Shown here one piece after another: positions 10,700-41,602 of a stretch of 64,000 nucleotides of DNA. The DNA lies in NCBI GenBank assembly GCA_051362555.1, contig CM120647.1, forward strand, positions 17,708,651 through 17,772,650, written 5' to 3'. The notes beneath the pieces were generated by a model that searched no databases, had not been told where the DNA came from, and worked only from the letters and a program-made list of their open reading frames with translations. This DNA comes from Lingula anatina (Eukaryota; Animalia; Brachiopoda). Position numbers and translations under genes: made by a program. Each line of letters starts with the position of its first letter. Position 1 is the stretch's first letter.

Positions 10700-11238
10700 A
10701 GAAGACTGCACTCTAAGATGGAAGGTCAGCATAACGTGCATGGCGCCATGCCGGTTTCGCTTTTGACTCAATTCAATTTTGAGCTGTTGCGTGGCTGTTA
10801 AAGGATAGAGATCTGCAAAAAGTTATTAAATCGATCACTTTTTATTTGCAAAATACGTTTAATTCAAAATTGCTTATTGCACCAGTTATTACACATTTGA
10901 ATGTTTTTTCCTCTCTTCTTAGGGTCTCGCTAAAACTAAAACACGTCTGTTGTGAACCGCCTTTGATCCCATTGCACTCTTTAATGTCATGGGTACAGCC
11001 AAATCAATCTTAGTATAAAACAAACTCCGAGCTCCGTGTTGCGTTCTCAAACACGCACGGCTTTCTGTACATCATGAATTTTACCGTTCATGATAAACGA
11101 TGGTCGGGGACTGGGGTTGCGTTGGATGATATGCAGCGCCCGGATTATCGATTGGGATAGCAGATATACACATGTACATCCAACCTGGCCCTCCCTGTCA
11201 AGGTTGAAAGATTCCATCGGATCCAAAGAATCAATGAA

Positions 11239-11332
11239 GCTGGAGTGGCTCCGTGGTAACTTTGCTGTCTCGTGTACAGCAAGACGCTGATACGCTGGTT
11301 CGAGACCCAACGAATGTAGTGCCTTTTTTTTT
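11239..11332 (+). ncRNA. Pol III-type small RNA candidate (tRNA-Thr(CGT)-like or vault-RNA-like), copy 1 of 9 in the array
   Basis: A box TGGCTCCGTGGT, hairpin TTGCTGT-ctcgtgt-ACAGCAA, B box GGTTCGAGACCC, oligo-T terminator. Other copies start at ~12614, 13987, 15380, 16774, 18164, 19553, 20786 and 22177. D and acceptor stems are poor, so it is not a canonical tRNA. Confidence 0.5.
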
Positions 11333-11377
11333 CAGAATTAAATTTTAAACCCTCCGTAACTACGGAGGGTGGGCGGG

Positions 11378-11481
11378 TCCGTCACGGTGCAGTCGGTAGC
11401 GTGCTTGGATGCAAATGAGACACCCAAAGAGCCACCAACCATGGCAACGCAAAGTCACGAGTTCGAATCCCGGATGAGGCA
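11378..11481 (+). pseudogene. tRNA-derived (Asn-like) element or SINE head with an insertion after the anticodon loop, copy 1 of 8 in the array
   Basis: A box CGGTGCAGTCGGT and B box GAGTTCGAATCC separated by ~30 extra nt. Homologous to the inverted copy at ~22684-22786, which reads GGCGCAATCGGTAGTGCGCACGGCTGTTAA like eukaryotic tRNA-Asn(GTT). Deleted in unit 7. Confidence 0.5.
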
Positions 11482-22683: not shown

Positions 22684-23050
22684 AACTCTACCGGATTCGA
22701 ACTCGTGACTCTCCGTTACCATGGTAGATGATAGTTTTGGGGGCTTTTAACAGCCGTGCGCACTACCGATTGCGCCGTGAGGGATCCACCAAACCTTCGT
22801 GGGTACGAGTTTTTTTTATAGTAATTATATAAGCAAAATTTTTAGAAACGATTTCTTTCAACAATAATTGGATTGGACGATGTAGAATTCGAACCCGTGT
22901 AGGACCGTCTACCTGTGTCCAAGTCGGCAGAGTTACCTCGGAGCCGCCGAAGCTTCGTCGGCAAGTAGAGTTTAATTGTAAACTTTCTACCTTGTCACGG
23001 AGAGCGCCAGTTTGGATGCACGTGTTTATGTCTGCAATTACAATCGATAG
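22684..23050 (-). repeat. Diverged inverted copy of the array's two-tRNA-like cassette and its upstream flank
   Basis: The reverse complement aligns with the unit: ATCGATTG..GCAGA..CATCCAA.CTGGC..AAGGT.GAAAGTTT, ACGAAGCT..GGCTCCG.GGTAACT..GGTTCGA, AAACTCGTA..TCACGG..TCGGTAG..ACCATGG.AACG..AGTCACGAGTTCGAATCC. Confidence 0.8.
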
Positions 23051-23462
23051 CCCTCCACTGTGGAGTTGCCCCGGGCCCTGTAAGACCATATGGACAGTCT
23101 TGATAAGCAAGGCCAGAGAGGAGGGGAGGGTAATGAAAAACCACAACAAAGGGAAAGTTTGGGTAAAGCGATAGCAGTGACGTGATTCCTAGTCAGATGA
23201 CCTCAGATGCTACACCAAGATGACTACATTTTTTTCGGGGGGGGGGGGGGTCGATTTCTGAAAAAAAGCACACCAATGGGCCTTTCTTGAAATTAGAAAT
23301 GTGAGTCGCTGAAATATCAAAAATTTTCCTGGTCCAGCAGCGGATCCCGAACCCTACGCCAAGGGGGGGGGGGGGGGGGAGAGGTTCGGCTTCGCATCCA
23401 TTGGAATAAAGTTTGTCATCCTCGAGGTCTGAGACAATAATGAAATACTGCAAACAGTTTAG

Positions 23463-23596
23463 TTACAGTTTTGCTTTTAATTGCTTTGCTGCTCTCTTTC
23501 TGAGCTCCCGGCGGAGAATCTTTCCACTTGGAGACTTTGGTATTTCAGTGACGAATTCCACGCCGCCCCGTAGACGCTTGTGGGGCGCCAAGTGCT
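23463..23596 (-). CDS. 4CL/luciferase-like acyl-CoA synthetase, terminal exon 11b ([43 protein letters not shown])
   Basis: CAG acceptor; catalytic-Lys motif [11 protein letters not shown]; PTS1 AKL then TAA; same length (134 nt) as exon 11a. Confidence 0.88.
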
Positions 23597-23658
23597 CTGG
23601 AAGGAGTAGAAATGATGTAGGTAGATACGTCACAATTAATTTATCAAATCTCTTTTAA

Positions 23659-24260
23659 AGCAATAATAACTCTTCCTTTGAGATTCAAAATTCCGCATGA
23701 AATACATTGTAAACAACGCATGGAAATATATTCTATTGTATTTTACCACTAAAACGGCCGTTATTGTAGTAAAACTAAAATCTGTGCTTGTCAATAGGGC
23801 TTTCGATGCTTTCATCAAGGCATTCGTTGCTAATGACGTAATGGTGTCACGCGGATTCTCGCGTTCATTCGAGACCAAAATAACATATGCGGACGCAGAC
23901 GTAAGTTGCGAGTTTTTGTACAGTGCTTCGGATAATGAAAAGCCCAGGATGGCACACATTGTGGATATTAATGTATTTTTAACAAAAAGACGAATATATC
24001 TCATGAATCTTATATAGTGTTGTTGTTGTCTGCTTTTCCCGCGGTTTTAAGTAGGTCAACAGTGACTATGCGATGTCAGAGAGAGCTCCGTCAGTTAAAA
24101 TCTCTTAAGAGATTTTAACAAAAAACCGTACGTTTAGGAAAAAACCCTGGATTAACTTTGAATGCAGGAATGGGGTCGCTGACCATTGGTAAGTACGGGA
24201 AAATTGCCGTTTACTCCAGGAAAATCCAATTTTTGGCCAAAATGAAGAGTTATTATGACT
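23659..24260. mobile_element. Kolobok-like MITE in intron 10b
   Basis: TTAA|AGCAATAATAACTCTTC ... GAAGAGTTATTATGACT|TTAA. Same family as 2404-2740, including the 26-bp palindrome at 24094-24119. Absent from paralogous intron 10a. Confidence 0.8.
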
Positions 24261-24377
24261 TTAACAGGTACGGGAGAGAACTTCAAGGCGACTTCATTTT
24301 TATGTATAGTGTTTGTTCACTGATATGTAAGCGTTTTCTAATTGATATAATTTGAGCAAACTATCAAACATTCTCAC

Positions 24378-24543
24378 CTGCGACGAAATCGGATATATCT
24401 TGAACAGTAGCCGTGACGTCATGTTTTAATATGACGTAAGCTTTGGGCAGCTCGCCCGCTATCTCATCTGGGACTCCAATTACAGCTACGTCAGCAACAG
24501 CAGGGTGGGTGTGGATCAGGTTTTCAAGTTCTGCAGGAGCCAC
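24378..24543 (-). CDS. Acyl-CoA synthetase exon 10b (VAPAELENLIHTHPAVADVAVIGVPDEIAGELPKAYV...)
   Basis: TAG acceptor, GTGAG donor, 166 nt, canonical VAPAELE...GELPKA motifs. Confidence 0.88.
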
Positions 24544-24761
24544 CTAGCGATACATTTTCAGACTATTTACAAAAAGAGAAATGAGAACAAAGAAAATTCG
24601 GTTTGAAATCACAGGCGGCTGGACTATATATGTGTTAGCATTACTGTAAATGAAAGTTGCTAAAAGGAACGGGGGCTGAATCATAAGTTTTGTGTAAGAA
24701 TGCTCCATGAATCCACTTACAGCATAATTTTCATATACTGTGAAGTAATCTTCTGTCTTAC

Positions 24762-24844
24762 CTGAAATCCCTTGTATTTAATGAGTTCCTTTAGCCTGTC
24801 TACCACATAGAAATATCCTTCTTCGTCATAATGCCCAATGTCAC
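24762..24844 (-). CDS. Acyl-CoA synthetase exon 9b ([28 protein letters not shown])
   Basis: TAG acceptor, GTAAG donor, 83 nt, hinge motif [11 protein letters not shown]. Confidence 0.9.
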
Positions 24845-25051
24845 CTAAAAGAACATCGATCAACATCTTGTTAATATTTCCAACCGCATATAGAGCCAAT
24901 TAAATCTAGTACCATCTTAAGTCTGTGATAACAAGTCAATAATCTTATAATATTCTTGGTTTTGCAAATATCATCAAAAGTGAAAGTAAAGTGGCAACTT
25001 TATCCTAATCTGCTCGTTCAAAATCTAAATGCAACAAGAGATTGTAAAAAC

Positions 25052-25196
25052 CTGTGTGAAACCACTCGTCTTTGTCAATACACTCAGCAGTGGCTTGAGG
25101 AAGGTTGAAGTACCCTTTCATCACTTGGGGCCCACGGAACCAGAGTTCGCCATCTTGATTGGCACCAAGAACCTGTTTGGTTTCCGGGTCCACTAC
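25052..25196 (-). CDS. Acyl-CoA synthetase exon 8b ([48 protein letters not shown])
   Basis: CAG acceptor, GT donor, 145 nt, [14 protein letters not shown] motif. Confidence 0.88.
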
Positions 25197-25312
25197 CTGG
25201 GAACAGATTATTTCTTGTATTAAGTTGAAAAATCAGTTTGTGTCCTGTTATATAAACGATTTAAAGAATATCGATTCCTCAATGTTAGAGTTAACGCCTT
25301 CATTGGTAACTA

Positions 25313-26968
25313 CAGGGTTACCACTTAATATGGAATATTATTTTTTGGCGAGTAAATTTTCTACAAAATATTTAATTACTCTCTAACTACTTTATTTCCA
25401 AAGCTGAGGTGTCACTCCATGTGTAACCAGGTGTGTTAATTACCACACAATTCTCGAAACAATTGATGCATGCAGTTGCATGTTCTATGGTCAGAAATGT
25501 GAGGGGTGGTCTTTTCGGCAATTTCCGCCCTTGTATAAAAATGCATGGGTTTGGTCAATCTTTGGAGTGTGTTTAGAGAAGCAACAAAGGGATCGCTCTG
25601 AAACTTGACAGGTACCTTAGTGAAGATATGGTTCGACAGCTAAGCAACGCAGCTTACTATGGGATTCTTGCTCTCAGAGAAAATGGCCAGAAACGGACAG
25701 CCATTGCCAGGTAATTCAACATTTATCAGGAACCGTTTGTGAAGTCCTCCAAAGAAATGCTGCAACAGGGGCACCTACTCCAATACCTCGACCAGGGTGT
25801 CCGCGTATCACACCAAGAAGACAGGATCGCTTCTCCTTAGATGACGCCGTGCTGGTCGAACAAAGACAACCAGTGTCCTCAGAAAAGAGAGGCAGAATGT
25901 CATTCAAACCCCCGTTTCAAGGTCCCTCGTGAACAAGAGATTACTGCAAGCTGGTTATTTTGCACGAAGGCCAGTAGGGAAACCACTGTTAACAGCAGGT
26001 CATATACAGCGACGTCTGCAATGGGCTGGAGACCACGTACGTTTGCAGCCAAAACACTGGAATCACGTCGTTTTAAGTGATGAGGTCAGATATGGATTTT
26101 TTTAGGGTTGATGGTCGAATCCGTGTCCACCGACGTGTACGAGGGGCATAAAACGATGATTGTGTACTGCCTAGGGTGCAAGCAGGGGATGGTAACGTCT
26201 CTGTTTGGGGAGCATTTCATGTCGGTGCCCAGAACCAGTTGGTTTTTCTAGGAGGCATCCTCATCCAGGATTCCTACAGAGACATTCTACAGCAAACAAT
26301 GCTTCGATTGGTAAGAGTCATCTTCAGGAACAACTTTGTGTACCAAGACGACTGCGCAACCCCACATCGAGGCCGCAGAATCACTGTTTTTCTTCAAAAC
26401 CAATGGGTTCAGCAACTGTCCCGGCCTGCAAACTCTCCAGATATGAACCCAATTGAAAATCTGTGGGCGGAAATAACTCACAGAATTAATAGCTATGGCT
26501 CTCGGCCGGTAAATAGTGATGAACTGCGACAGGCAAACATCACTGCGTGGAATGATATCCCCACCCAAACTCTAAAATACGTGTCACAGGGTATGCCATG
26601 TAGGATGAGGGCGCTGCAAGCGGCTGCTGGAGGTCATACCCGCAATTACTGACTTTTCATGAATTACTGTAGTGAGTTCTTTGACAGTGTAACATATCAC
26701 TGTCCGGAGGCTATCCTTTTCTTTAATATCTTATCTCAAAGTTTATACTGACATCAAACTGTTGATATGGTTTTCTGGGGGTGTTCCTTTCTTTTGAATG
26801 GCATCTTATGTCAGATTTGATATTATTGACCAAAATATCTCACAACAGAAGACTGGATGTTATTATCACTCAGTGACATACTTTTTTAATGACTCAAGCC
26901 AAAAAAATTTTAATCAGCACTCATAAATAACAATGATAAAAAATATTCCATATTAAGTAGCAACCCTG
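25313..26968 (+). mobile_element. Tc1/mariner (DD34E) transposon, degenerate, in intron 7b
   Basis: 27-bp TIRs CAGGGTT(AC/GC)(C/T)ACTTAATATGGAATATT with TA on both sides. The paralogous intron 7a (~31840) shows the empty site TTGGTAGC-TA-CTTT. Confidence 0.92.
25628..26652 (+). pseudogene. Tc1-family transposase pseudogene
   Basis: MVRQLSNAAYYGILALRENG... with stops and frameshifts; RPGCPRIT linker; VVLSDE, YQDDCATPH and SPDMNPIENLW motifs, with 34 residues between the second D and the E; ends GGHTRNY*. Confidence 0.9.
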
Positions 26969-27110
26969 TACTATTATATTTATACATATTCCTTCCATGT
27001 ATAAATATATCCGCTTCTTCATATAATATAATTTATTCATCAAGTTTAAAATTAAACACGTCAGTCACCTGTGAGTTTTTAATTTTTTACTATTTTCTCT
27101 TAGGCATTTA

Positions 27111-27325
27111 GGGCGTATTCCCAGAGCTTTTAGATAGATCTATCCCCGCGGGAAGTCTCACTAGATTACTGTCCGATAATCCGGCTTAAATGTCCGTCCC
27201 GCCTACTACAAGCTGTAAGGGGGCAATTAACTTTCGTGCCCGCTCGGCTAACAGCTATTTAGCGTGAACCCCCAGGGAGTTAGGTCGATCTAGTTTGGAT
27301 CGATCTAATCTCTGGGAATGGGGTC
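27111..27325. mobile_element. PIF/Harbinger (Tourist-like) MITE in intron 7b
   Basis: TTA|GGGCGTATTCCCAGAG ... CTCTGGGAATGGGGTC|TTA; same family as 10169-10393. Confidence 0.8.
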
Positions 27326-27598
27326 TTAGAATGAGATAGCTGAAGCTTTGGGGATTCTGATGCCATCAATTAAGTTTACTCTCAATAATTAGATGTCAAA
27401 GGTATCCTGGAGATGGGCTTCTGTGGGGGAGTGCGGACATAGGGCTACCCATTTATATCACCTACTTTTTTTACGCCAAAACCAGGACAGCTCCTGATTT
27501 TAAAATAAATTCCAAATTTAGATTCCTCCTGTCCATTATCTTTAAATTGTTTGTCACAGCATTGCTAACAGCATGAGAATTTTTTTAATTTGGCCTAC

Positions 27599-27705
27599 TT
27601 TGCATTCCGTATCTGGCACCAGTATTCCACAGGATCCAGACTTTCTTGGAAAGCAATTGACTCTAGGGGGTGCCAGCAACGCGCTACTCTCAGTAAGGCC
27701 ATACC
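27599..27705 (-). CDS. Acyl-CoA synthetase exon 7b (GYGLTESSALLAPPRVNCFPRKSGSCGILVPDTECK)
   Basis: TAG acceptor, GTAGG donor, 107 nt (one codon shorter than 7a, in frame), GYGLTE motif. Confidence 0.88.
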
Positions 27706-27789
27706 CTAAAATACATATATTTTTCATAAGTGTATTTTTATGTTGTTTTAAATGTCCAAATTTCAAAGATATTTTGAAAGAGTTGATAA

Positions 27790-28008
27790 AGCCCCCTTTA
27801 CACTGGACGGCGTCCTTTCTGCATCACGTAGTACGGCCCCGTTTGAGAGTAAAAAAATAATACTTTGCATGCTGACAACTGGCCGATCATTGAGGATTCA
27901 TTTTGCAACCAGAGCGATGTTTGTGCCTCCTTTCTACGACCACAGCGATGCCAGATGCATGGTCTCACAAAGGACGCAGAAAGGACGCCGTCCAATGTAA
28001 AGGGGGTT
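27790..28008. mobile_element. PIF/Harbinger-like MITE in intron 6b
   Basis: TAA|AGCCCCCTTTACACTGGACGGCGTCCTTTCTGC ... GCAGAAAGGACGCCGTCCAATGTAAAGGGGGTT|TAA (~33-bp TIRs, 3-bp TSD). Absent from intron 6a. Confidence 0.85.
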
Positions 28009-28274
28009 TAACTATGCACTCGCTGAGATTAAATCAAGAAAACAATGCTGCTAAGGCAATGACAAATCTATTTTAGGCAATATTGCAGCCGTTTTGATTA
28101 GCTGTCAGTTTAGAATTCACAACATAATACTTATAGGTAGCAATAAGAAACACTTACAATGCGTCACAAGAACCTGAAAGAAATTAAAGAGAGTGTAGGC
28201 TATCTGAAATAATTTTTGGGGAAATGATAAGAACTATGTTATTTTATATCATTTTCAAAGGTTATTACAAGTAC

Positions 28275-28443
28275 CTTGTCCAATAGCTATTCCCAACCGT
28301 TTCTGTATGGCGATCTCAGTATTCTTGCCTAGTGGGGCAGCTCCGCTTAGAATGTCTCGCACACAAGAAAGGTCATACTTATCTACCAGCGGGTTCTTTG
28401 CCAGATGAATGACTGTAGGGGGCACACAGTGCAAGACGCTACC
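28275..28443 (-). CDS. Acyl-CoA synthetase exon 6b (GSVLHCVPPTVIHLAKNPLVDKYDLSCVRDILSGAAPLGKNTEIAIQKRLGIAIGQ)
   Basis: TAG acceptor, GT donor, 169 nt, YDLS and SGAAPL motifs. Confidence 0.88.
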
Positions 28444-29310
28444 CTAAGCGTAGAAAGTGAAAGTGAAACTGAAAGTACGTTTTTTTTTTCAATTCCATTG
28501 ATTGAAAAATGTTAGAATAGATAATGCTATATGTGAACTTATATCTGGGAGTCAAAGGTCGAAACATACTGTCCTCTGTTTATAAAGCTATAACATTAAA
28601 CTGAGATAGTATTAGTCTGTAGCTTCGCTGACCCACTTAATGCTAATATTTACGTAACTTTGTGCTCAGACCATATTAAATATATGTGCCTCTAATTTCT
28701 ATAAAATGGTATTGAACAAGGGACAACCACCAGTACCATATCAATACCAAAGTATAAACTAAGGTGTCATCTTGTTTTCCAGAGCAAAGATTCCATTTAA
28801 AGTCGCAGCGACCAAAAAAATACAAAATCAGTATTAAGAAAAAGCGTTAAGCAATCGCAGCAGGTTAAAGATGGGTGCCTATATTACAAGAGTAAATTTT
28901 GTTCATATTGTTACAAGCTATACGTTTCTTAAACTGCGAAGTTGTACGTTTGGGTTGTTAGGGGCGGAAAAATCTCTCGTGCACGTCAAAAGCGAATAAA
29001 AAAAGCGTGCAAAAGCCAGACATACACAGCTTTAAAGCCAAACTTCGTTAATTATATATGATGCGCGGACACACGCACATTAGACCAACATGGATTCATC
29101 AAAATTCTTTTCATTTTGCCATGGTTGCACTCAAAATTAGGGAGACCCACGTTGAGCAAAAGTGTACTCTACTAACAAACGACCTGCTCTTCTAACATAC
29201 TACATGTACATATATCCTTTGCCACAATTCCAAAGGGCACGGTAAGGTGAACCTCCTCGATTGTCACAATGGTGAGACGTCTGATCTGTTAATTCTAGAC
29301 GGCCACAGTT

Positions 29311-29650
29311 ATTACCTCCGCCAAGGAGGTTATGTTTTCACCCCTGTTTGTCTGTCTGTCTGTGTGTCTGTCATCAACATAACTCAAAAAGCTTTGGACC
29401 GATTTTGATGAAATAATCAATCAATAATCAATAATAAAAAAACTTATTTATGGACCGATTTTGATAAAATTTTCAGGAACTGTCAGAAGTAGGCCAATGA
29501 ACAGATGATTAGTTTTTTGGTGGTGATTCTGATCAATAATCAATCAGTAATCAATAATCAAAAACATCGAAAATTTAGGGGTGAAACGGCATTGGATGGA
29601 GACTTTGCTGCCTTGGCGGACGTCTGCACTCTCTGAGTGCTTTTCTAGTT
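29311..29650 (+). mobile_element. Helentron-associated (HINE/DINE-1/pearl-like) non-autonomous element
   Basis: Starts ATTACCTCCGCCAAGGAGG, followed by a (GTCT)n tract, duplicated core (TGGACCGATTTTGAT), inverted CCTTGGCGGA, and 3' hairpin GCACTCTCTGAGTGC then TTTTCTAGTT. It interrupts the exon-5.1 remnant. Confidence 0.7.
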
Positions 29651-29721
29651 CCAAAATGTGAACGAAGGTTACAGTGCATGACCCCAGTGAACGTGGTACC
29701 ACTGGTGAGACGAGAATGGCA

Positions 29722-30040
29722 GTCCTAGGAATGGAAGTCCGGGACCCCATATGCTAAGTACAGGTTGGGGTTAGTTGGGGTATTGGGGTTAGTATATGGA
29801 ACGAATGTCACCTAAACATATAATGAAGACCGGAATATGGTTCCCAGCGAACATCCATTCCTGTAATACCGGTGTCACGAAACTGAGGGTCCGTGTGACA
29901 GAAAGTCCGCCCTCCATATGGTTATAATGGTTAGGGTTAGTTTGACCTAAGTAGGTCAAAATCTAGGGCTGGGCTCACCTGTACAAATGAATGGGAAACG
30001 GACTCTCTGTCATGGGGGACTTTCTGGTACATGACATCGG
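29722..30040. mobile_element. Two adjacent short MITEs inside the exon-5.1 remnant
   Basis: Inverted ends GGAATGGAAGT/ACATCCATTCC (~29722-29868) and CCGGTGTCACG/CATGACATCGG (29869-30040), with GGGTTAG-type internal tracts. Confidence 0.55.
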
Positions 30041-30416
30041 GATAATATGTGCACCCAGAGCTGCGGAGGAGAAAGGAATGAGTGCCAAGTTTGAAGTGAC
30101 AACTACGACATGGGGTGATTGGAAAGGAATCCGTAGCAAGGCTGGGGGGGGGGGGGGGGGGTCGGGGTTCCAAAAGAACCGCCTTTTTGACTTGAAAAGG
30201 TCCGCTCTGAATCAAAAATTGATCTTGGCTCTATGATATGCGTTGGACTGGGTCAACGTAAGAAGTTAATTTTTTTTTCAGAAAAGATATCCCTTCCTTT
30301 GAAATTTCTGTTTACACAGATAGAGTTCAGTGGATCGCTGTTTCGTTACTTACCACTTTGTGTGCAATCTAAACCCAGTGTCCATTCATTCACAATAAGG
30401 ACAAATGGCAGTTCAA

Positions 30417-30422
30417 TTTATT
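30417..30422 (-). terminator. Candidate polyadenylation signal AATAAA for the exon-11a isoform
   Basis: TTTATT on the + strand, ~175 nt downstream of the 11a stop codon. Confidence 0.4.
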
Positions 30423-30595
30423 ATCTTTATATAGAATTTAAACATCTCGTTTAATATGCCGTCATGAAAAAATACAGTATCAATACATTGTATGCATCCC
30501 TTGGAATAAAGTTTGTTGTCTTCGAGGTCCGTACTATGACATTTTGATAGGTGACACATCTGGTGCCAATAATAATAATACCGCAAACAGTTTAG

Positions 30596-30729
30596 TTACA
30601 GTTTCGCTTTTAATTGCTTTGAGGCTCTCTTCCTGAGCTCCCGGCGGAGAATCTTTCCACTTGGAGACTTAGGGATTTCAGTGACGAATTCCACGCCGCC
30701 CCGCAGACGCTTGTGTGGCGCCAAGTGCT
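30596..30729 (-). CDS. Acyl-CoA synthetase terminal exon 11a (...[25 protein letters not shown])
   Basis: CAG acceptor, catalytic Lys motif, PTS1 AKL then TAA, 134 nt. Confidence 0.92.
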
Positions 30730-30905
30730 CTGGAAGGAATAGAAATGACGTGGATAGATACGTCACAAAAAATTATTTTTTTTATCATTTTTAGAGGTTA
30801 GGGTAGAACTTCAATACCAGTTCAATGTTATGTACAGTGTTTGTTCATTGATATGTAAGCATTGTCTTATTGGAATAATTTGAGCAAACTATCAGATGTT
30901 CTCAC

Positions 30906-31071
30906 CTGCTACGAAATCGGATATATCTTGAGCAGTAGCCGTGACGTCATGTTTAAATATGACGTAAGCTTTGGGCAGCTCGCCCGCTATCTCATCCGGG
31001 ACTCCAATTACAGCTACGTCAGCAACAGCAGGGTGGGTGTGGATCAGGTGCTCGAGTTCTGCTGGTGCCAC
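30906..31071 (-). CDS. Acyl-CoA synthetase exon 10a (VAPAELEHLIHTHPAVADVAVIGVPDEIAGELPKAYV...)
   Basis: TAG acceptor, GTGAG donor, 166 nt. Confidence 0.92.
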
Positions 31072-31289
31072 CTAGCGATACATTTTCAGATTATTAACTT
31101 ATAGAGAAATGAAAACAAAGTAAAGTCGGTTTGAAATCACGTGCGTCTGGACAATGTGTGTATGAGCATTGCTGTAAATGAAAGTTGGTAAAAGGAACGG
31201 GTACTGAATCATAAGTTTTGTATAAGAACACTCCATGAATCCACTTACAGCATAATTTTCATATACTGTGAAGTGATCTTCTGTGTTAC

Positions 31290-31372
31290 CTGAAATCCCT
31301 TGTATTTAATGAGTTCCTTAAGCCTGTCTACCACATAGAAATATCCTTCTTCGTCATAATGCCCGATATCAC
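31290..31372 (-). CDS. Acyl-CoA synthetase exon 9a ([28 protein letters not shown])
   Basis: TAG acceptor, GTAAC donor, 83 nt. Confidence 0.92.
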
Positions 31373-31572
31373 CTAAAAGAACAACCATCTTGTCAATAAT
31401 TCAAACCGCATATGGAGCCATTTAAAACTAGTACCATCTAAAGTCTGTGATAACAAGTCAATCTTATAATTTTCTTGGTTTTGATAACATCATCAAAAGT
31501 GAAATTGAATTGGCAATTTCGTCCTTAATAGCTGCCCGTTCTAAATCTAAATGCAGTAAGAAATTTAAAAAC

Positions 31573-31717
31573 CTGTGTGAAACCATCCGTCTTTGTCAAT
31601 ACATTCAGCAGTGGCTTGAGGAAGGTTGAAGTATCCTTTCATCACTTGGGGTCCACGGAACCAGAGTTCGCCATCTTGATTGGCACCAAGAACCTGTTTG
31701 GTATCCGGGTCCACTAC
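31573..31717 (-). CDS. Acyl-CoA synthetase exon 8a ([48 protein letters not shown])
   Basis: CAG acceptor, GT donor, 145 nt, DGWFHTGD motif completed by exon 9. Confidence 0.92.
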
Positions 31718-32052
31718 CTGGGGATATATTCTCTCATGTATTACATGTAACAGCTGACAAATAAAAAAAGTGCACCCTGTTATATTTGTGATTTAAAGAA
31801 TATGGATTTCTTCAATGTTAAAATTAACGTCTCCAGTTGGTAGCTACTTTAGAATTCTTTTATTTCACTCGCTAACTAGTAGTTTTCATTTATTCGCCAC
31901 TTTCTATTCATTTGTTTATGTCAGAACTATAGTATAAAATTTCTAAATTAAAAAATATTATAGGGCCTACGTGTTAAGATTTCCGTTTTCATAATTATGA
32001 AAAAATTACGAAAATGATAAAACCACGAAACATTACGTGTTCACGCCCTTAC

Positions 32053-32162
32053 TTTGCTTTCTGTATTTGGTACAAGTATTCCTGAGGATCCAGACTTTCT
32101 TGGAAAGCAATTGACCCTAGGGGGCGCTAGTACAACTGGGCTTGTCTCAGTAAGTCCATAAC
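32053..32162 (-). CDS. Acyl-CoA synthetase exon 7a (GYGLTETSPVVLAPPRVNCFPRKSGSSGILVPNTESK)
   Basis: GAG acceptor, GTAAGG donor, 110 nt, QGYGLTET motif. Confidence 0.9.
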
Positions 32163-32363
32163 CTCAAATATGTACGCATTTTGCATTACATGTACATATG
32201 TGTAAAATTTTATGTTACTCTTATGGTTCAAATTTTAAATAACTATAAGCACTCACTTTAAAATCAAATAACGCACTCGTATTTAGGCCTACTTGTCAGA
32301 CAATGGCATTTAAGAAAATAACTTTAACAGATTAAGTATCAAATTGGTAATAAGAAAAAAATA

Positions 32364-32467
32364 CCCAGCAAAAACCAAACATTTCACAACGTTACCTTAT
32401 GTTACCATAACGTTTTTTTTTTCATTATAAAAACGTTATGGTAACGTTATAATAGCATTTTTCTGGG
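32364..32467. mobile_element. Small TA-flanked MITE (CCCAGCAAA...TTTCTGGG) in intron 6a
   Basis: TIRs with TA on both sides and internal AACGTT repeats. Absent from intron 6b. A related copy lies at ~35078-35178. Confidence 0.65.
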
Positions 32468-32536
32468 TAGCAATGCGTCATTCAAAGTAGGTAAAAAAAT
32501 AGGAAGTTTATCTGAAATGTTTCAATTTACAAATAC

Positions 32537-32705
32537 CTTGTCCAATGGATATTCCCAGCCGTTTCTGTATGGCAATCTCAGTATTCTTGCCTAGTGGCGC
32601 CGCCCCGCTTAGAATGTCTCGAACACAAGAAAGGTCATACTTGTCTACCAGCGGGTTCTTTGCCAGATGAATAACTATAGGGGGCACACAGTGCAAGACG
32701 CTACC
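32537..32705 (-). CDS. Acyl-CoA synthetase exon 6a (GSVLHCVPPIVIHLAKNPLVDKYDLSCVRDILSGAAPLGKNTEIAIQKRLGISIGQ)
   Basis: AAG acceptor after a pyrimidine tract, GTATTT donor, 169 nt. Confidence 0.92.
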
Positions 32706-33239
32706 CTTGGAGAGGAAAGTGAAAGTGAAAGCAATTCCTTCGCAGATTGAATGATTATTTAAGTACACCTTCATAGTAATGTGTGTATTAATTCTTTGGG
32801 AGCTAAACAGTGTTACTTGGTGTACACCTTTTACAGAGCGAGAGTACAAAAATGAAAGTAATCTGTTTTTATGGTTCCAATGAGATGGTCAATATGTTTG
32901 AATATAGCCTATACCCGTCTGTAACTTTGCTTTTCAATTTGTGGAGCATTAATCATCTTAAATAATTGCGAATCAAATTTTTAAACAAGGCAGCAAAGCT
33001 GTCAAATGTACAGACAAAAAGCAGGAAATAACAAAAAAGGCTACTGTCAATTCTGATGCAAAAATACATTATGTTAAACTGCAAATTCAACATCAAATTT
33101 TAATTATGCTCAACAGGTAATACAAACGTAAGTTAAATGTGTAACAAGCATAAGGCTTCAGGCCCATGGGAGTTCAAGTTCACACTTTGAAAATGTATAA
33201 CTTCCAGAAAAAGAAGCCAATTAGACTGCTTTTCCAACT

Positions 33240-34775
33240 CAGGCTGCATGTCGATTTTTGAACTTGATCTGCGTTTTAGTAAGATCGATTACTAATGAGA
33301 GTTTCATGACAACAGGCCTATCGGTTTTCCTTGAAATGTGTTTACAGTGTTGCATATATGTTGAAAAGTGAAAAAAAAGCATAACTTCTACAATAATGGC
33401 CCGATCATCCTGATTTTCGAACTTGACCTGCATTTTATGAAAATTCATCAGCTCTATAAATACAAAGCCCAAAAGAAAAACTGCCTTCCACTTATCGTGT
33501 TTACAATGAAAGTGCAAGGCGCCGGCGTCGGCGATGATGGCGACGACAGACGCAGGGGATGGCAATATGTACAGACACATTTATATATATTAACTGTACT
33601 GTTTGAGAACAGTAATTGACATGGTTTTTCTTAAATGGTCACAATGGGAGCAGTGACCAAATTAGGTTTTTTACAAATTTTGATGCAATAACATAATTTT
33701 TAACAGCATAATAACCATCAATTTTTAATAATAAAATATTAGTATCATGGATATTCAGAAAATGTGACTAGCAAAGGTCTTCAGGCCCATGGAACTTCAA
33801 AGTTACAACTTGAAAATGCCAAAATGTAAACAAGACAGCACTGTTCTGAAATGGGTTATTTTTAACAATTTTTAACATAAAACAAAATTAACAGTTTACT
33901 GCCATTTTTATATGACCAACTAAAAAAATTGATGAGATGGGAAAAATATCAATAGAGCAGTGTTAAATGTCCAATTTCTTCCATTCTGAGATTCTGAACA
34001 TAGTGAATGATTCAGTCTGACAAACTGCAATGATATGAGTTTATTTCCATTTTTGAAACTTTATTACACAATATACAATAACAAGTTTAACATCATTTTT
34101 ACAAAATCAACTAACAATGTTGTAAAGATGCAGGAAATGTCAAAAAAACACTTTTACATATCTTATTAATTAAATAATGAAACTGTTAACATGCCTAAGA
34201 ATTGAATCTAAGGAAATGTAAAGAACAGCATAACTTCTAAAATAATGGCCCGATTATGCTGATTTTTGAACTTAACCTGCATTTTAGCAGGAATGACCAC
34301 TCCTGTGAGTTTAATGACAATTGGCCTATCTGTTTTTCTTATATCGTGTTTACAGTGTTGCATATATGCTGAAAAGTGAAAAAAAAAGCATAACTACTAA
34401 AATAGTGGCCCGATCATGCCGATTTTCGAACTTGACCTGCGTTTTAGTAAGATCAATTTTTCCTGTGAGTTTCATGACAACAGGCCTATCGGTTTTTGTT
34501 GAAATGTGTTTACAGTGTTGCATATATCCTGAAAAGTGAAAAAACAGCATAACTTCTACAATAATGGCCCGATCATGCTGATTTTCGAACTTGACCTGCA
34601 TTTTATGAATATTCATCAGCTCTGTAAATATAAAGCCAAAAAGTAAAACTGTCTTCCACTTATTGTGTTTACAAGGAAAGTGCACGGCGACGACGGCGAC
34701 GGCGACAGCGACGACGGCGACGGCGACGACAGACGCAGGTGATGGCAATATGTACAGACACATCTGTGTCTGTAC
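33240..34775. mobile_element. Two copies (~33240-33585, ~34220-34775) of a repeat with ~160-bp tandem core and (GACGGC)n tract, HINE/pearl-like
   Basis: Recurring core GCATAACTTCTACAATAATGGCCCGATCAT..GATTTTCGAACTTGACCTGC; shared end CGACGACAGACGCAGG..GATGGCAATATGTACAGACAC. Confidence 0.6.
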
Positions 34776-35239
34776 ATAAAAATAAAGGCTACTGAAAATC
34801 AAAAGCCATAATTGTATGTTTTAACATACAATTATGGATACGCTACTTAAAAGTAGCGTATCCATCGGCAATTAATCAACAATTGAGATACAATTTGGTT
34901 TTCAAGAGCAGAGGTTCTAACAAGGCCTTTGTGATCTTCTTACAGTTCTTACAAATAAGCTGACGGTAATTACAGCGGTTGAGGATGAGCATTTTGCAAG
35001 ATTAATTATTCTGCAATACGTTTCCATACTTTTCAAATCATTTTGGAAAATTGATAGAACTCGCCAAAAGAGACTAGACAGCAAACACAGAACGTTGTTA
35101 TAACGTTACCATAACGTTTATGTAAACAAAAAACGTAACGTCATGGAAACGTTATAAAACGTTATGTGTTTCCCAGGTACTTGTACGTGTATAACTTGGG
35201 TACAAAGCAATGAGGAAAGCACGTTGCCCATCGACTTAC

Positions 35240-35420
35240 TCTGAATCTACTAGTAAGTTCCACGTATTCAGCAAAATGATATCTCCTCATGGTAACGACC
35301 CTCGCCCCCTGCTCTATCCCCTTGAACACTATCTGCACCATGCCGTAGATGTGGTAGAAGGGAAGTGCGCCTATAAAGCTGTCCTTGCCAGGGGTGACGG
35401 AAGCATAGATCCCGGAGTCG
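35240..35420 (-). CDS. Acyl-CoA synthetase alternative exon 5.3 (DSGIYASVTPGKDSFIGALPFYHIYGMVQIVFKGIEQGARVVTMRRYHFAEYVELTSRFR)
   Basis: TTTTCTCCAG acceptor, GTAAGT donor, 181 nt, phase 2-0, no stops, LPxxH motif. Not in the ORF track. Confidence 0.85.
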
Positions 35421-36031
35421 CTGGAGAAAAAGAGGGCGCTAGATGTACCGCTCTGTTTAGTTGTAGTGGCTTTTGGTCAAGCGTCAATAGTCCAGAGAGT
35501 AAGTAAGAGTGCTCTAACCATCGAGTCACCGTATAAAACGATTGGCGAAAAAAGGGTTACCTTCTCCTTCGCCATTCTTTTTTTAAATTTATTTTGGGGG
35601 GAGGGGGGTTGCAGAGGTTGGAGGATGTAAATGACTTTGATCAACACTTGATTCAACGCAGGTAGCCAGCATCAACAACAAGCCGCCGGAGATGAAGCAG
35701 TAAAGAATCACAGCAAAGCACGGCCCCATTTAAGCAAGAAACGGCTCAACTTTTGCTTCTTCGAGGAGGAAGACCACAACTCAGTGGAACGTTGTGACGT
35801 ACTGATACCGTCCAGCAGAAAGCTTTAAATTTTACCAAAAACCAAACAAGCAGCCAAAAAATTCAGTGTACACATTTTTAAAAGGCGTAAGGATATACTC
35901 AAAATTTGCAGGGGTACAGAATGGATGCGTGACGCTGAAGAAATCACTACATTTACACTAGGACGAAACTGCACGAATAGCATCAAACAGCCGATTGTAA
36001 AAAGTGTTGGTACACGTAATAAAACACTTAC

Positions 36032-36212
36032 TTTATTTTCGGTAACAATCTTCAAATAGGACTCAAGATGGAATTTTCTCACGGTCACCACCTTGAGGCA
36101 AAGTCGCAGTCCTTTAAAGAGAACGCTGGTCAAGCCAAAGATATGGAATACCGGCAGCACGCACACGTAGCAATCCTCTCCAGGCGTCACGCGCGTCTGT
36201 ATGTACGGGTTG
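36032..36212 (-). CDS. Acyl-CoA synthetase alternative exon 5.2 (NPYIQTRVTPGEDCYVCVLPVFHIFGLTSVLFKGLRLCLKVVTVRKFHLESYLKIVTENK)
   Basis: CCACCTAG acceptor, GTAAGT donor, 181 nt, phase 2-0, no stops. Confidence 0.87.
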
Positions 36213-36467
36213 CTAGGTGGGTGAATGAAATTAAAGAGCGTGATGAACGTCGCTCGTTCTTGTCAGAAGCGAATCCAAAATAAAAAGCATGCTAAAAGCC
36301 AGACTTGCGCAGCTGAAAGGGTTGAATTTCTTGCAAGCGTGCACACCAGTAGGAAACAATCATGGCTTCAATTTTTGTTGCACTTTGCTATGCCTGCACT
36401 CAAAATTTGGGCGACTAGTTCAGCGTGGGCCAATGTCCACAGCAAACCCTTTGAACTGGACACTTAC

Positions 36468-36648
36468 TTTATACTTGGTCACAATTTCAAGGTACGCAGG
36501 TAAATGAAACGTCCTCATTGTCACAATGGTGAGATATCTGTAAAGCCCTGTGAGGAGGATCACGGTTAAACCAAAGCTGTGAAAGAAGGGTAGGACCCCT
36601 ATGAGCGTCGTACTCCCGGGAGCGACGGGAGAATATAAGCCGTCCGAA
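36468..36648 (-). CDS. Acyl-CoA synthetase alternative exon 5.1 (SDGLYSPVAPGSTTLIGVLPFFHSFGLTVILLTGLYRYLTIVTMRTFHLPAYLEIVTKYK)
   Basis: TTTCTTTCTCCTCCACAG acceptor, GTAAGT donor, 181 nt, phase 2-0, no stops, VLPFFHSFG motif. Not in the ORF track in this frame. Confidence 0.87.
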
Positions 36649-37603
36649 CTGTGGAGGAGAAAGAAACGAGGGCGTCATTTAACTCCGTCAAGTGTCACGT
36701 GACAACTGTTGGTCCATGTCATACTATAGGGGTGGTTGGAAAGGAAGCCGTAGGGGTATTGATGAGCGTGCATCATGATAGATTTAAAAAAGAAAAAAAA
36801 AACGACCCATTCTTAAAAATTTAATGCTGTAAATAATGTCATTTCATGTTACATTATTGCAACTAGCACTATTCATTTTTGTTTCATAGGCTTTTGCACA
36901 ATATAAAACTATGGTCGGTTTGGGTATCTTTTTGGTCAGACATTTTGAAATATTCGAAGAGTTCATTCCGATTTTATAATAAAGCGTGTCGCATTCTTCT
37001 TATGGTTATGTATTGGCCTGTTACCACAAAAAATATTAGGCTAGAAATCGTCATTAAACTAGATCAAGAATGTTGGAAAGATTTTTTCCTCTTTATCAGG
37101 AGATCAATTTTGACCTATATTTCATGCAGAAAATGGCCTGGGAAGGCCACAAAATCCGCAAAAAATGGTGACAAAATCCCAGCTGCACTCCCATTTCACA
37201 GTATGTTTGAGCTAACTAGCGCTGAAATTCTGGACAAAAAGTTACTTGAAGCACAATAAACCTATAGTTTATATAGCTAGAGTATCAGAACCTATGCAGA
37301 CCAACTTTTTTCAGTTTCAAATTTTCTTACGTGCGTCCGAACCACAAAGGTGCTAGATTGAAATTTACCTCGCAAAAATCAAATCTTTAACTACGTCACA
37401 TTCCCGTTCCGGATAACCTAAGACCCTATATACGTTAATCTTTATTGGGTCCTAAGGATAAGTAAGTTAACCCTATGACAAGGTAGACTTCAACCAAACT
37501 TGCAGCTGAATGTACATGTAGGATTTTTGTGAGCGTGCACAGAGAGGTTGGGAAAGGAAGAAACTGGCACGCGTCGAACTTGATTGAAGACTAGTATATT
37601 TAA

Positions 37604-37838
37604 GACTGGGTTCCCATGCCTAGATCGATCTAACAGGATCGATCCATCTCCAAGGGGTTTCTCATTAAATAAATTTCAGTTTAAGTGGTTAAGATGTCTG
37701 GCACGCCTACTGAAGCTGCTAAACGATAGTTAATTACCCCCTAGCAGCTTCAGTAGGCGTGACAGCAATTTAGCGAGAATCCCATCTGAGATAGATCGAT
37801 CCACAGTTTGTGCGATAGGGTCTGGGAATGGTCCCCAA
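37604..37838. mobile_element. Diverged member of the Harbinger-like MITE family of 10169/27111
   Basis: TTCCCATG..TAGATCGATCTA ... TAGATCGATCC..CTGGGAATGG ends; internal CGCCTACT..AAGCT motif. Confidence 0.5.
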
Positions 37839-38085
37839 GCCAATGGCAGAACCAGGCGTTAGCTTAATAGGCCATGTGTACCCTCCTCTCCTTAGGTAGA
37901 CACCCCCTTCTCCCCAATTTTTCGTCCCTTGATCCAACCCGTCACAGTGAAATTGAATTCCTCTACTGTTACATATCTGCCGAAAGAAGCAATGCTATTT
38001 TTCCTTGTTGCCCACCCATCTCCAGTTAAATTCTGGATCCGCTCTTCTATACCGCAGTTTCAAATACTAATGTCACAATACTCAC

Positions 38086-38291
38086 TCTATCTGCATCAGA
38101 TTAGCCACCAAATTGTAGTGCGTTAACATGACGGGTTTGGGCATCCCTGTTGTCCCGCTAGACGACGGTAGGATAGCCACGTCCTCACGGGTGTTAAACG
38201 GGACAAACGAGGGGAACGCTATGCCGTCGTCGTTGAGAAGAACGCTGAAGGGAAACGTGCCGACAGGAGCATCGCCAACTACATACACCAC
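38086..38291 (-). CDS. Acyl-CoA synthetase exon 4 with AMP-binding P-loop (…DVAILPSSSGTTGMPKPVMLTHYNLVANLMQI)
   Basis: AAG acceptor, GTGAGT donor, 206 nt ending in phase 2; SSGTTGxPK signature. Confidence 0.93.
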
Positions 38292-38594
38292 CTTGACAAA
38301 TAATGTGAATTTTCAGATTGATGATGACTGTCAGTTAGCTAAAACTATCATATTATCCATATCGCACATTAATTGAGTGTTTAATAATAAATTCAAATCA
38401 TAATCAAGTTTCCTTGTTAAATGAAGCACTATATTCGATATCTAGTACGAGTTTACAGGGACTCGTATGCGTTTTTAGGTCACTTGCAAGAAAGACATCG
38501 ACCATTATCAAGTTTTGGTGTGTAAGCAAATTAATTAATAACGTTTTGTTGTATTTTCACGCGCAGTGTGTCAGTCTTATTGCATTTCTCTCAC

Positions 38595-38701
38595 CTTCAA
38601 GTGTCCTATTTCTCGCGCCGCGTCCTTCACCTTGCTGACGTTCTCTGGCACTGTCATGACGAACGTCGCTTTGGTGCTGCGAAGCTGGTATTCTAATTCC
38701 T
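38595..38701 (-). CDS. Acyl-CoA synthetase exon 3 (EELEYQLRSTKATFVMTVPENVSKVKDAAREIGHLK)
   Basis: TTTTGCAG acceptor, GTGAGA donor, 107 nt; frame joins exons 2 and 4. Confidence 0.9.
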
Positions 38702-39057
38702 CTGCAAAACAGAACATAAATACATGATCTATCATTTTCTTAAATCATGCAGCGAGACGAGTCTCTCTCTCATTCTCTCAACTATTATTTTTGGAGGGTC
38801 CAAATCTTAGACATTTGCACAGCTAACTGATTCTGATCTTCTTATTAAGTATAATATCGTTCAATAATATCGTTCAATCATACTTATAGTAATGATGTAT
38901 TAGTTAGTAATAACTGTAGCCATGGGTCAACAGACAAAACCACGCTGTTGGTCTTCTCGAAGGAGAGTCGAATATTTAAAAGTTTTTTTATAAATTAATA
39001 AAAGTACTATGACGTATTTGACAGTGGCTAGACACAGATTTAAGGGGCGTCCTTTAC

Positions 39058-39265
39058 CCTCGGTGTAGAGTGGATTAACGGTAGTGACCACACCACCAAT
39101 GGCTAGAGCACCCAACAACCCGAAGGCGTACTCTGGCACATTGGGGCAGTAGACGCAGAACGCGTCGTTCTTGCGGAGACCTGCTTTGAAGAGCCCGCTG
39201 CCCACTCGACGGACGTTCTGCAGGAGTTCTCTATAGGTGAACTGTTGCCCCGTCTCTCCATTTAC
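39058..39265 (-). CDS. Acyl-CoA synthetase exon 2 (VNGETGQQFTYRELLQNVRRVGSGLFKAGLRKNDAFCVYCPNVPEYAFGLLGALAIGGVVTTVNPLYTE)
   Basis: TTTAG acceptor, GTAAAG donor, 208 nt; TYxEL and NPLYT motifs of the 4CL/luciferase family. Confidence 0.93.
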
Positions 39266-40059
39266 CTAAATGAAAGGCGTCGTTTAAATTTTAAAGAAAT
39301 TAGTAAGTTTACTGTCTTCAGTTATCTCAGGTTCTGTGTACATCCTGGTCCTTTATTTTTAACTCTATGGAACAACTAACGGGGGTTTGTTGTCGAAAGT
39401 CCCTTTGTTTTTTATATTTTAGTTAGCTTTAATAATCTGCATTGAAATGCAATAACTCAAAAGATTTTTGTTAGAGTGAAAATCAGCATGTGTTCCGAAA
39501 AATGCCCAGCTTAATACGAGATTTTTTAAAATAAGTTTTGAAATTGCGTTCTAGAAGACCCTAAAAACCGATTAAATTCACCTACTCCCCCACCCCTCCA
39601 ACCCACTCAATCCACTTTTCCCCCTCAAACAGGATGCCCAAAGCAGCAGAATGACATGAATGGCAGGACACCGAATCGCTGATAAGAAGGTGTGCACTTC
39701 TTGTGAAATCAGCTTTAGTTTTGTCAGTGACCTAAATAAACTAATATGCCATGTGGAAATGCAGTGGCACGCTTTGCAGGTCGTTTGAACTATGCACAGT
39801 ACACAGCTACACCCATCAAAAAGGCATGGTACGTGTAGAGAGAGGTATATGGGTGGAGGGGATGTTAAAACGCTGTTGCACTCGGAAAGTTTAACATTCC
39901 GGGGCATTGGGATTGGAATGGGAAATAAGAGGTACAATGAAATGCATATAAGCGCCGGGGTTGGGGGGTGGGGGGGATACAATGAAACACCTGTGGTTGG
40001 AGGGGAATGGGGGTGGGGAGTGGTGGGTGCATGGGGGTAACGTTGTTACCAGTTCTTAC

Positions 40060-40179
40060 CAGCGCCACTAAGTCTCCGTATTTCTCCGCATTCTGCAACA
40101 CAAACTCTGCCAGTGACACGTTCTCCGGTATCTCCACTGAGGGGAGCTTACTCCTAACTACTCCCTGAGCGTTCGCCAT
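40060..40179 (-). CDS. 4-coumarate-CoA ligase-like / luciferase-like acyl-CoA synthetase exon 1 (MANAQGVVRSKLPSVEIPENVSLAEFVLQNAEKYGDLVAL)
   Basis: ATG in GTCATGG context, 40 codons, GTAAGA donor. The joined CDS (exons 1-4, one exon 5, 6a-11a) is 1629 nt = 542 aa + stop. Confidence 0.92.
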
Positions 40180-41602
40180 GACTTCATTAATTTACACCTA
40201 CCGCAGGCGAGGCGAAAAAATGCCGATTCATTCCCAGAGAAGAGAGACCTGGTGGGATTAACCTACGAGCTGATATCCCGGTTGATTTAACCTTGCTTCA
40301 GCAAAGAGAGACTGACTTCCAAGGTCGCGCAGATTTAGGCCTACTATCAGAAAATAAACAAAACGATCACACATGGCGGGGAAATATCAAGAGGGTATAA
40401 TTAATGTAGGTTCGTGATGTGTTTGTGTGCGTTGGTTTCTACTGACTACTGCTTTATATCTTTTAATTGAGCACAAGGATGGAAAATTTGATCGGAATAA
40501 CCCTTGCAAGAAGCAACTTTTATTCGCCTCAACCCCTTCGCGCTGTTGATGCGTTTGCTGCACTGCACATAGTTTTCTAGACAAGTGATCCGCGGGTGCT
40601 TCGCAAACACATTTGCCTTCGATATCTCTTTTCGCGCAACTACAACAGTTATAGTATTTCTCTTTAAAACCCCAGTTACTTAGATATCTATTGTGAAAAA
40701 AAAATTTTTGAGGAATTAAAAACGCAACAAGAAACAATAATAAAGGAGGTTGACGCGACATTAAAATATTGTTTTAAATAAAACTGATGATACAAGTTTC
40801 AAAAATAAATGATTGAATAGCAAACTTGAATAAGAACTTCCAAGTTTAAAAATCCATTTATCTTTAATTATTTGTCCTTAATGAATAGACTACCGTCAAT
40901 TAATTAGATAGTTCTTCATGCCAGTTATTGAAAAAAATTGACAATGAATAGGTTTTTTCCCTTTCTTAGTTAACGTAACTTATGGCATGTGGGCTTGGTC
41001 TACACAATAAAAACAACGAAACACTTTTGAAATCATTATAATTACTTTTTTATTTGAAATAACAAACAAAACGTGTGATTTCATATCTCAAACTTCCCGA
41101 TTTCCTTTTCCTCTTAATAGTCACACTGAAAACACTTTCGTAAGGACTTGAAATTCGAGGCTTATTTTCAGATATCCAACTTTTCCCGGTTGCTGAGAGT
41201 GGCTATATCCAAACAATGTTTATAACGACGTCATCAACGGAAGTAACGCATCACTCGGCGCACCTGCGTTTTAACCATTCCGCCAAAGTAGTTCTTCAAT
41301 TCCTTTACACATTTCTCCATATTTTCGGATACGAATGATTAAAATAGATATATCTCATTGAAAAAAATGCTTTTTGACGTTCACTTTATACAAGTATAGC
41401 TCACGTTAGATAAAATACGAAGAGAATAGTCACCATTTTGTTGAAATGTCCATCCGCGTATGAATGCTAATACAAGTAGTTCGAGAGGAAGAGAGGCCAA
41501 ACCGACTTGACAGTGAACATAAATTACTGCTGAATTTTGATCAATTTTAAGCATCAACTGCGATCAGTTTGGGACTAGAAGAAGAGAGGAGAGCGAAGGA
41601 TA
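40180..41602. promoter_or_regulatory. Head-to-head intergenic/promoter region (~1.4 kb between ATGs)
   Basis: Divergent ATGs at 40179 (-) and 41603 (+). ETS-like CGGAAGT (~41238), CRE-like ACGTCA/TGACGT (~41228, ~41375), YY1-like ACATGGCG (~40371) and CCATTTT (~41433). Confidence 0.45.

Follow-up and report, generated by a model that had tools for sequence, protein, structure and literature searches.

The stretch of Lingula anatina DNA analysed here (the window, 64,000 nucleotides of contig CM120647.1 in assembly GCA_051362555.1) carries on its minus strand a gene of 11 exons, with its ATG at 40179 and its stop at 30596, whose predicted product is a 4CL/firefly-luciferase-like acyl-CoA synthetase with an -AKL end. 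Exon 5 is present in three copies. The parts of the gene are listed below, with the evidence for each in brackets.

40060 to 40179, minus strand: exon 1, coding part only, ATG at 40179 (spliced-frame translation)
39058 to 39265, minus strand: exon 2 (spliced-frame translation; AMP-binding look-alikes)
38595 to 38701, minus strand: exon 3 (spliced-frame translation)
38086 to 38291, minus strand: exon 4, AMP-binding P-loop, phase 2 donor (PF00501, 40.6 bits)
36468 to 36648, minus strand: exon 5.1, 181 nt, S/F/V at the matches to Nt4CL2 238/239/243 (splice sites, frame, profile alignment)
36032 to 36212, minus strand: exon 5.2, 181 nt, I/F/S at the same matches (splice sites, frame, profile alignment)
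35240 to 35420, minus strand: exon 5.3, 181 nt, I/Y/Q at the same matches (splice sites, frame, profile alignment)
32537 to 32705, minus strand: exon 6, phase 0 acceptor (spliced-frame translation)
32053 to 32162, minus strand: exon 7, GYGLTE motif and second pocket loop (translation, homologue comparison)
31573 to 31717, minus strand: exon 8 (spliced-frame translation)
31290 to 31372, minus strand: exon 9 (spliced-frame translation)
30906 to 31071, minus strand: exon 10, AMP-binding C-terminal domain (PF13193, 49.5 bits)
30596 to 30729, minus strand: exon 11, coding part, -AKL-stop end (AATAAA at 30422)

The AMP-binding domain and its P-loop are identified by the score of exon 4, which lies above the PF00501 cut-off of 29.9, and the C-terminal domain by exon 10, which likewise passes its cut-off. 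Exon 11 encodes the catalytic-lysine motif SGKILRR, whose Lys we take to be the catalytic lysine of the C-terminal domain, and ends, as does the exon 11' described below, in -AKL, presumably a PTS1 variant. The enzyme is thus likely to be peroxisomal, and ATP-dependent formation of acyl-CoA is its predicted reaction. A C-terminal PTS1 is the defining trait of the beetle PACS enzymes (excerpt of PMC6191289). Protein search with exon 4 gave as top match a Lingula 4CL-like protein (67%), which when used as a query in turn retrieved animal and bacterial 4CL-like proteins; the solved structures closest to this homologue are plant 4CLs, followed by beetle luciferases and Drosophila CG6178. For comparison we chose 40 homologues (29 named animal proteins and 11 others) from about 300 listed. 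Two Lingula proteins (P0001 and P0015) share 60% and 57% identity with the constitutive part of the gene product, which groups with them in a quick tree (SH-aLRT 99). Such similarity does not fix the substrate, as several 4CL/luciferase-like enzymes activate fatty acids (excerpt of PMC3098103). No Rfam or tRNA matches were found.

The original prediction proposed that the three exon-5 copies are mutually exclusive alternatives, and the structural claims on which it was built were borne out. Each copy is 181 nt long, phase 2-0, preceded by AG and followed by GTAAGT, and is free of stops in one frame only, and the pairwise identities counted by hand (28/60, 21/60 and 20/60 residues) matched ours exactly; at the DNA level, the copies share 92/181, 95/181 and 92/181 nt. 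They are thus homologous neighbours within a single gene, alike in length and in phase. Because exons 1-4 sum to 641 nt (phase 2) and every copy finishes in phase 0, inclusion of exactly one copy restores the frame, as had been claimed: any single copy yields 542 aa without an internal stop, whereas the first stop falls at aa 224 if no copy is included, at aa 307 or 325 if two are and at aa 307 if all three are. These stops lie far upstream of the last junction, and the frame dependence therefore makes every product with the wrong number of copies a candidate for nonsense-mediated decay (NMD). All three copies keep the invariant L-P-x-x-H-x-x-G, in the forms LPFFH, LPVFH and LPFYH, and their splice sites, with pyrimidine fractions of 0.75-0.95 and GTAAGT donors, are at least as good as most constitutive ones. 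An HMM of the 40 homologous segments, from which the window's own sequences were excluded, scored the three copies at 57-61 bits (E <= 1.2e-16; six frames, 64 kb) and the next-best stretch at 8.4 bits; no fourth copy was found in the 64-kb window. When ORFs of at least 100 aa are listed from stop to stop, exons 5.2 and 5.3 are among them and exon 5.1 is not.

Where did the copies come from? When the 60-residue segments are placed in a tree, the three group together to the exclusion of the 40 homologues with support of 95/82, on 59 columns, with an unsettled bootstrap and with the copies themselves on long branches, and they also have lineage-specific residues in common; their grouping therefore points to tandem exon duplication in this lineage. 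Long-term purifying selection, another part of the original prediction, is upheld by the substitution pattern, since synonymous differences are saturated (pS 0.815, 0.757 and 0.812) against pN values of 0.38-0.40, and 17-22/60 third codon positions are identical between copies vs 36-43/60 second positions. Neutral simulation with substitutions only, at a distance of 1.0, left the frame open 7-9% of the time and produced 49-50 residue differences on average; the real copies differ at 32-40 residues, at a greater synonymous distance than that simulated. Their identity to each other (0.33-0.47) is like that found over the same segment when animal homologues of separate phyla and paralogue groups are compared (mean 0.42, 29 proteins), and of the 15 columns in which at least 70% of homologues agree they keep 9, 11 and 8. 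Judged on these comparisons of sequence, the three copies are old lineage-specific exon duplicates under purifying selection.

Searches for relatives turned up no orthologue with the same exon cluster. Exon 5.1 alone found 0 matches among 62 candidates in a protein search, and a profile search of 1.84 billion representatives returned 914 matches at E <= 0.001, of which the top one was a repeat artefact and the best full-length ones generic family members, with no close orthologue among the 4 inspected of the 150 matches listed. Cluster look-ups covered 20 homologues; among the 21 same-cluster pairs compared, which came from the first set of clusters (amphioxus, sea star, urchins), none differed in this segment only. 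Two amphioxus paralogue pairs have 23/101 and 24/102 of their differences in the segment, which makes up 11% of the protein.

That the copies encode a segment of the substrate pocket, as had been proposed, was corroborated by their profile, which aligns without gaps to residues 226-274 of tobacco 4CL2 (Nt4CL2; E 6e-11). The match to luciferases is far weaker (E 0.03-1) and gives no pointer to luminescence. Pocket roles were taken from the plant 4CL numbering, in which positions 238 and 243 are pocket residues of the 4CL specificity code. At the matching positions, exons 5.1, 5.2 and 5.3 encode S/I/I (238), F/F/Y (239) and V/S/Q (243), and at position 247 one copy has T where the other two have K. 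Position 239 of Nt4CL2 sits where the acid and CoA pockets meet; the Km for coumarate rises about 5-fold with Y239F and about 150-fold with Y239A (excerpt of bioRxiv 10.1101/2021.07.06.451337, citing Li and Nair 2015). Given splicing of all three copies, it is reasonably probable that the isoforms would differ in substrate preference, and the substrates would be fatty or aromatic acyl groups in peroxisomes.

How one copy would be chosen was approached through the introns between them, which are 255 and 611 nt long. Since all sites are GT-AG, with GTAAGT donors, and the introns have these lengths, exclusivity by steric hindrance or by U2/U12 incompatibility is unlikely. A check for docker and selector sequences in 10 region pairs found no intronic helix that clearly beat the null, the best being reached by 2/40 nulls. 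Two introns share a short motif:

36398 to 36409, minus strand: 12-nt intronic motif after exon 5.1 (14/1000 null pairs reach 12 nt)
35897 to 35908, minus strand: second copy of the 12-nt motif, after exon 5.2

Its 10-nt core is present at only three sites on that strand, one of them at 29138 in the decayed duplicate described below, and has no exact complement in the window; the motif might bind a protein or be a relic. A palindrome-rich element is found at 35091-35157, just after exon 5.3, and at 32401-32459 in intron 6. Its two occurrences could pair over 43 nt (84%) across exon 6, and they account for the longest inverted repeat, 32417-32459 with 35091-35133.

RNA reads from four of the nine runs under the species label were mapped on 23300-40400 (6-25% of each run read). 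Mapped reads were mostly intronic repeats, and the gene was almost uncovered. In 4/4 runs depth was zero in the bin over exon 5.2 and also in that over constitutive exons 3-4, at most 0.34 in the bin over most of exon 5.3 and up to 2.5 in that over exon 5.1, the last of which cannot be credited to mRNA because constitutive exons are uncovered. No exon junction was seen among the 15 joints listed (of 354), in runs in which constitutive exons are barely covered. Because exons 3-4 are equally empty, zero coverage of exon 5 is uninformative rather than negative. The intron after exon 5.3 contains a repeat with a 160-nt tandem unit (33247-34763) at which RNA depth is near 1000; these reads are mostly 90-95% alike and then diverge from the window, and are therefore transcribed from copies elsewhere.

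Downstream of the gene lies a partial tandem duplicate that the original prediction did not mention, starting near 30141 with the homologue of the end of intron 4:

29210 to 30141, minus strand: start of the duplicate, end of intron 4 and a dead exon 5.1', broken into three, frameshifted and without its donor
28930 to 29210, minus strand: remnant of the 5.1-5.2 intron and the exon 5.2' acceptor with its AG lost
28275 to 28443, minus strand: exon 6', intact (158/169 nt identical to exon 6)
27599 to 27705, minus strand: exon 7', 3 nt shorter, with a one-residue deletion and substitutions after GYGLTE
25052 to 25196, minus strand: exon 8' (spliced-frame translation)
24762 to 24844, minus strand: exon 9' (spliced-frame translation)
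24378 to 24543, minus strand: exon 10' (PF13193, 52.6 bits)
23463 to 23596, minus strand: exon 11', coding part, -AKL-stop end (next AATAAA only at 21781)

The body of exon 5.2' and all of exon 5.3' are absent. Exon 5.1', ruined within a dS of about 0.26, serves as an internal control for neutral decay against which the intact state of exons 5.1-5.3 can be read. A search of the 64-kb window for exons 1'-4' and an intact exon 5' belonging to the duplicate found none, so that in the present layout a complete enzyme could be made from it only by splicing of exons 5.1-5.3 to exon 6'; joined in this way, each copy gives an open frame of 541 aa with exons 6'-11'. Six of the 14 substitutions that separate the two 3' halves, together with the deletion, fall in exon 7, including the loop after GYGLTE, which matches Nt4CL2 Gly339-Leu342. 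In Nt4CL2 this loop restricts bulky substrates (excerpt of PMC13341628), and plant 4CL accepts sinapate once a Val or Leu of the loop is deleted (excerpts of PMC7419483 and PMC13341628); of two plant structures in the PDB, 5bsw has one residue fewer than 5bsm in the loop that follows GYGxTE. As single queries against the PDB, exons 7 and 7' were too short and gave no matches. The duplicate may be an alternative 3' half, giving 3 x 2 predicted isoforms. We advance only tentatively the larger picture of a combinatorial pocket, in which the three exon-5 variants would form one wall and the two six-exon 3' halves, one of them with the kind of loop deletion that widens plant 4CL, the other, for up to six peroxisomal enzymes from a single promoter.

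The enlarged intron 7' contains a fragment of a Tc1/IS630-like transposase (26152-26652, plus strand; PF13358 DDE_3, E 2.7e-6, just below cut-off). Further along the window, a tandem array with a unit of about 1.39 kb occupies 10828-22629, with eight near-full copies (94-98% identical to one unit) and two partial ones, and has no Rfam or tRNA match; directly after it, at 22693-23049, is an inverted relative of part of the array unit, about 360 nt long and 65-68% identical (against 12518-22432).

The reading that we prefer is that a single coding exon of a synthetase gene was long ago duplicated in tandem to give three 181-nt copies, one of which would be spliced into each mRNA. This would yield three 542-aa enzymes with a common ATP-binding core and different predicted walls of the acyl pocket, each likely tuned to other carboxylic-acid substrates. 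Messengers with zero, two or three copies would be removed by NMD, and the choice of copy would be regulated by RNA-binding proteins rather than by steric, U2/U12 or docker-selector means. For the mutually exclusive cluster and the specificity reading taken jointly our confidence is high. One gene thus likely makes three enzymes, and possibly six.

Other explanations of the exon-5 copies fit the data less well. An assembly artefact, in which haplotypes or pieces of paralogues were stitched together, is scarcely credible: at about 51% DNA identity, with unrelated flanks, the copies are far beyond allelic divergence, and the order 5.1-intron-5.2 recurs in the independent downstream duplicate. 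It is also improbable that one copy is used now and that the other two, once functional, are silent or barely used. The RNA data would agree with this, as junction reads are lacking for every copy and the 5.2 bin is empty in every run, but so are the constitutive exons 3-4, and two exons would have to have been silenced at once and very recently, since all three keep their length, frame, splice sites and core motif whereas the neutral exon 5.1' decayed fast. More serious, though still on the unlikely side, is the possibility that splicing is exclusive but that all copies act on the same substrates and adjust kinetics, stability or tissue-specific activity. Positions 238, 239 and 243 do account for only a minor part of the 32-40 differences between copies, the segment is variable throughout the family, and 4CL-like sequence is a poor predictor of substrate (excerpt of PMC3098103); against this stand the non-conservative changes at those three positions and the difference of K and T at 247.

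For the second 3' half, we lean slightly towards exons 6'-11' not being joined to the exon-5 copies at all, and being instead a dying remnant of a partial duplication or a full paralogue that has recently lost its 5' part, by deletion or in assembly. Depth over exons 9'-10' is zero in the same RNA runs, 3' UTR homology stops about 100 nt past the stop codon with no AATAAA within 1.6 kb, and the duplicate is changed at P339, N363 and G411, residues that 37, 35 and 39 of the 40 homologues share, respectively. For its use, transcription would moreover have to run past the first poly(A) site and splicing to pass over six exons. Yet exons 6'-11' are open, with all 6 acceptors and 5 donors intact, an open frame that would have a chance of 0.027 under neutrality. 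Compared with exons 6-11, they show a dN of 0.025 and a dS of 0.26, with 14 substitutions and one codon deletion vs 67 expected if neutral (minimum 41 in 5000 runs). A stand-alone paralogue would need two separate recent losses, because neither exons 1'-4' nor an intact exon 5' could be traced, and gene conversion is disfavoured by a synonymous divergence of exons 6'-11' that exceeds the divergence of introns 8-9. If the duplicated half is used, a partial gene duplication would have been absorbed as a multi-exon alternative end, adding pocket variants without new genes.

The preferred arrangement of exclusive exon-5 copies has its closest parallel in human ACSL6 and ACSL1, in which two mutually exclusive exons of 26 residues cover D-x4-(F/Y)-LPLAH-x2-E (excerpt of PMC1543647); the activity of ACSL6 differs between isoforms that carry different gate exons (excerpt of PMC2868784). 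Both systems are acyl-CoA synthetases in which homologous exons, mutually exclusive in ACSL and predicted to be so in Lingula, contain an LP-x-x-H by the acyl pocket and have a Tyr/Phe difference, and the shared motif and superfamily suggest that the two LP-x-x-H motifs may be the same structural element. The ACSL genes, however, have two 26-residue exons, whereas the Lingula gene has three 60-residue exons that are 33-47% identical and whose predicted exclusivity would be enforced by the frame. LPFFH, LPVFH and LPFYH also depart from the ACSL gate consensus, so that the Lingula cluster would work alike without belonging to that class. Given its 4CL/luciferase-like subfamily and the clade of its own that the copies form, its origin is therefore independent of the ACSL pair.

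Homologous mutually exclusive exons (MXEs) in general have a mean identity of 67% and a median length of 36 aa, with variable residues near functional sites (excerpt of Lam et al., PMC7954323), and in C. elegans NMD was invoked for 14/29 clusters and three-exon clusters such as that of gly-5 occur (excerpt of PMC4165533). The exon-5 copies resemble these as tandem duplicates of equal length near a functional site, with fidelity that NMD would aid, but are longer and more diverged and are accompanied by a duplicated multi-exon 3' half. With peroxisomal and 4CL-like synthetases (Lingula P0001 and P0015, beetle PACS, luciferases and Drosophila CG6178), the gene product shares domain layout, motifs and a PTS1-type end; whereas beetles (excerpt of PMC6191289) and amphioxus diversified such enzymes by tandem duplication of whole genes, the Lingula gene would do so inside one transcription unit. 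Exon 7', one residue short after GYGxTE, recalls the pocket-loop deletion of plant 4CL (Nt4CL2 Gly339-Leu342; 5bsw), but the placement of its gap is ambiguous and a conserved Pro in the loop is also altered.

In the mostly open-access literature covered, we found no report of an MXE cluster in a 4CL/luciferase-like gene. Annotation pipelines would be likely to give one isoform and a pseudogene fragment here. The substrates of 4CL/luciferase-like enzymes are hard to deduce from sequence (excerpt of PMC3098103), and the predicted isoforms, as natural chimeras identical outside 60 residues, would offer a clean test of the residues that set acyl specificity. The exon-5 cluster is real, and it is new relative to known MXE and ACSL cases in its subfamily, copy number and divergence: the swap of acyl-gate exons found in mammalian ACSL1 and ACSL6 appears to have been reached independently, in the family behind firefly luciferase, with three far more diverged choices.
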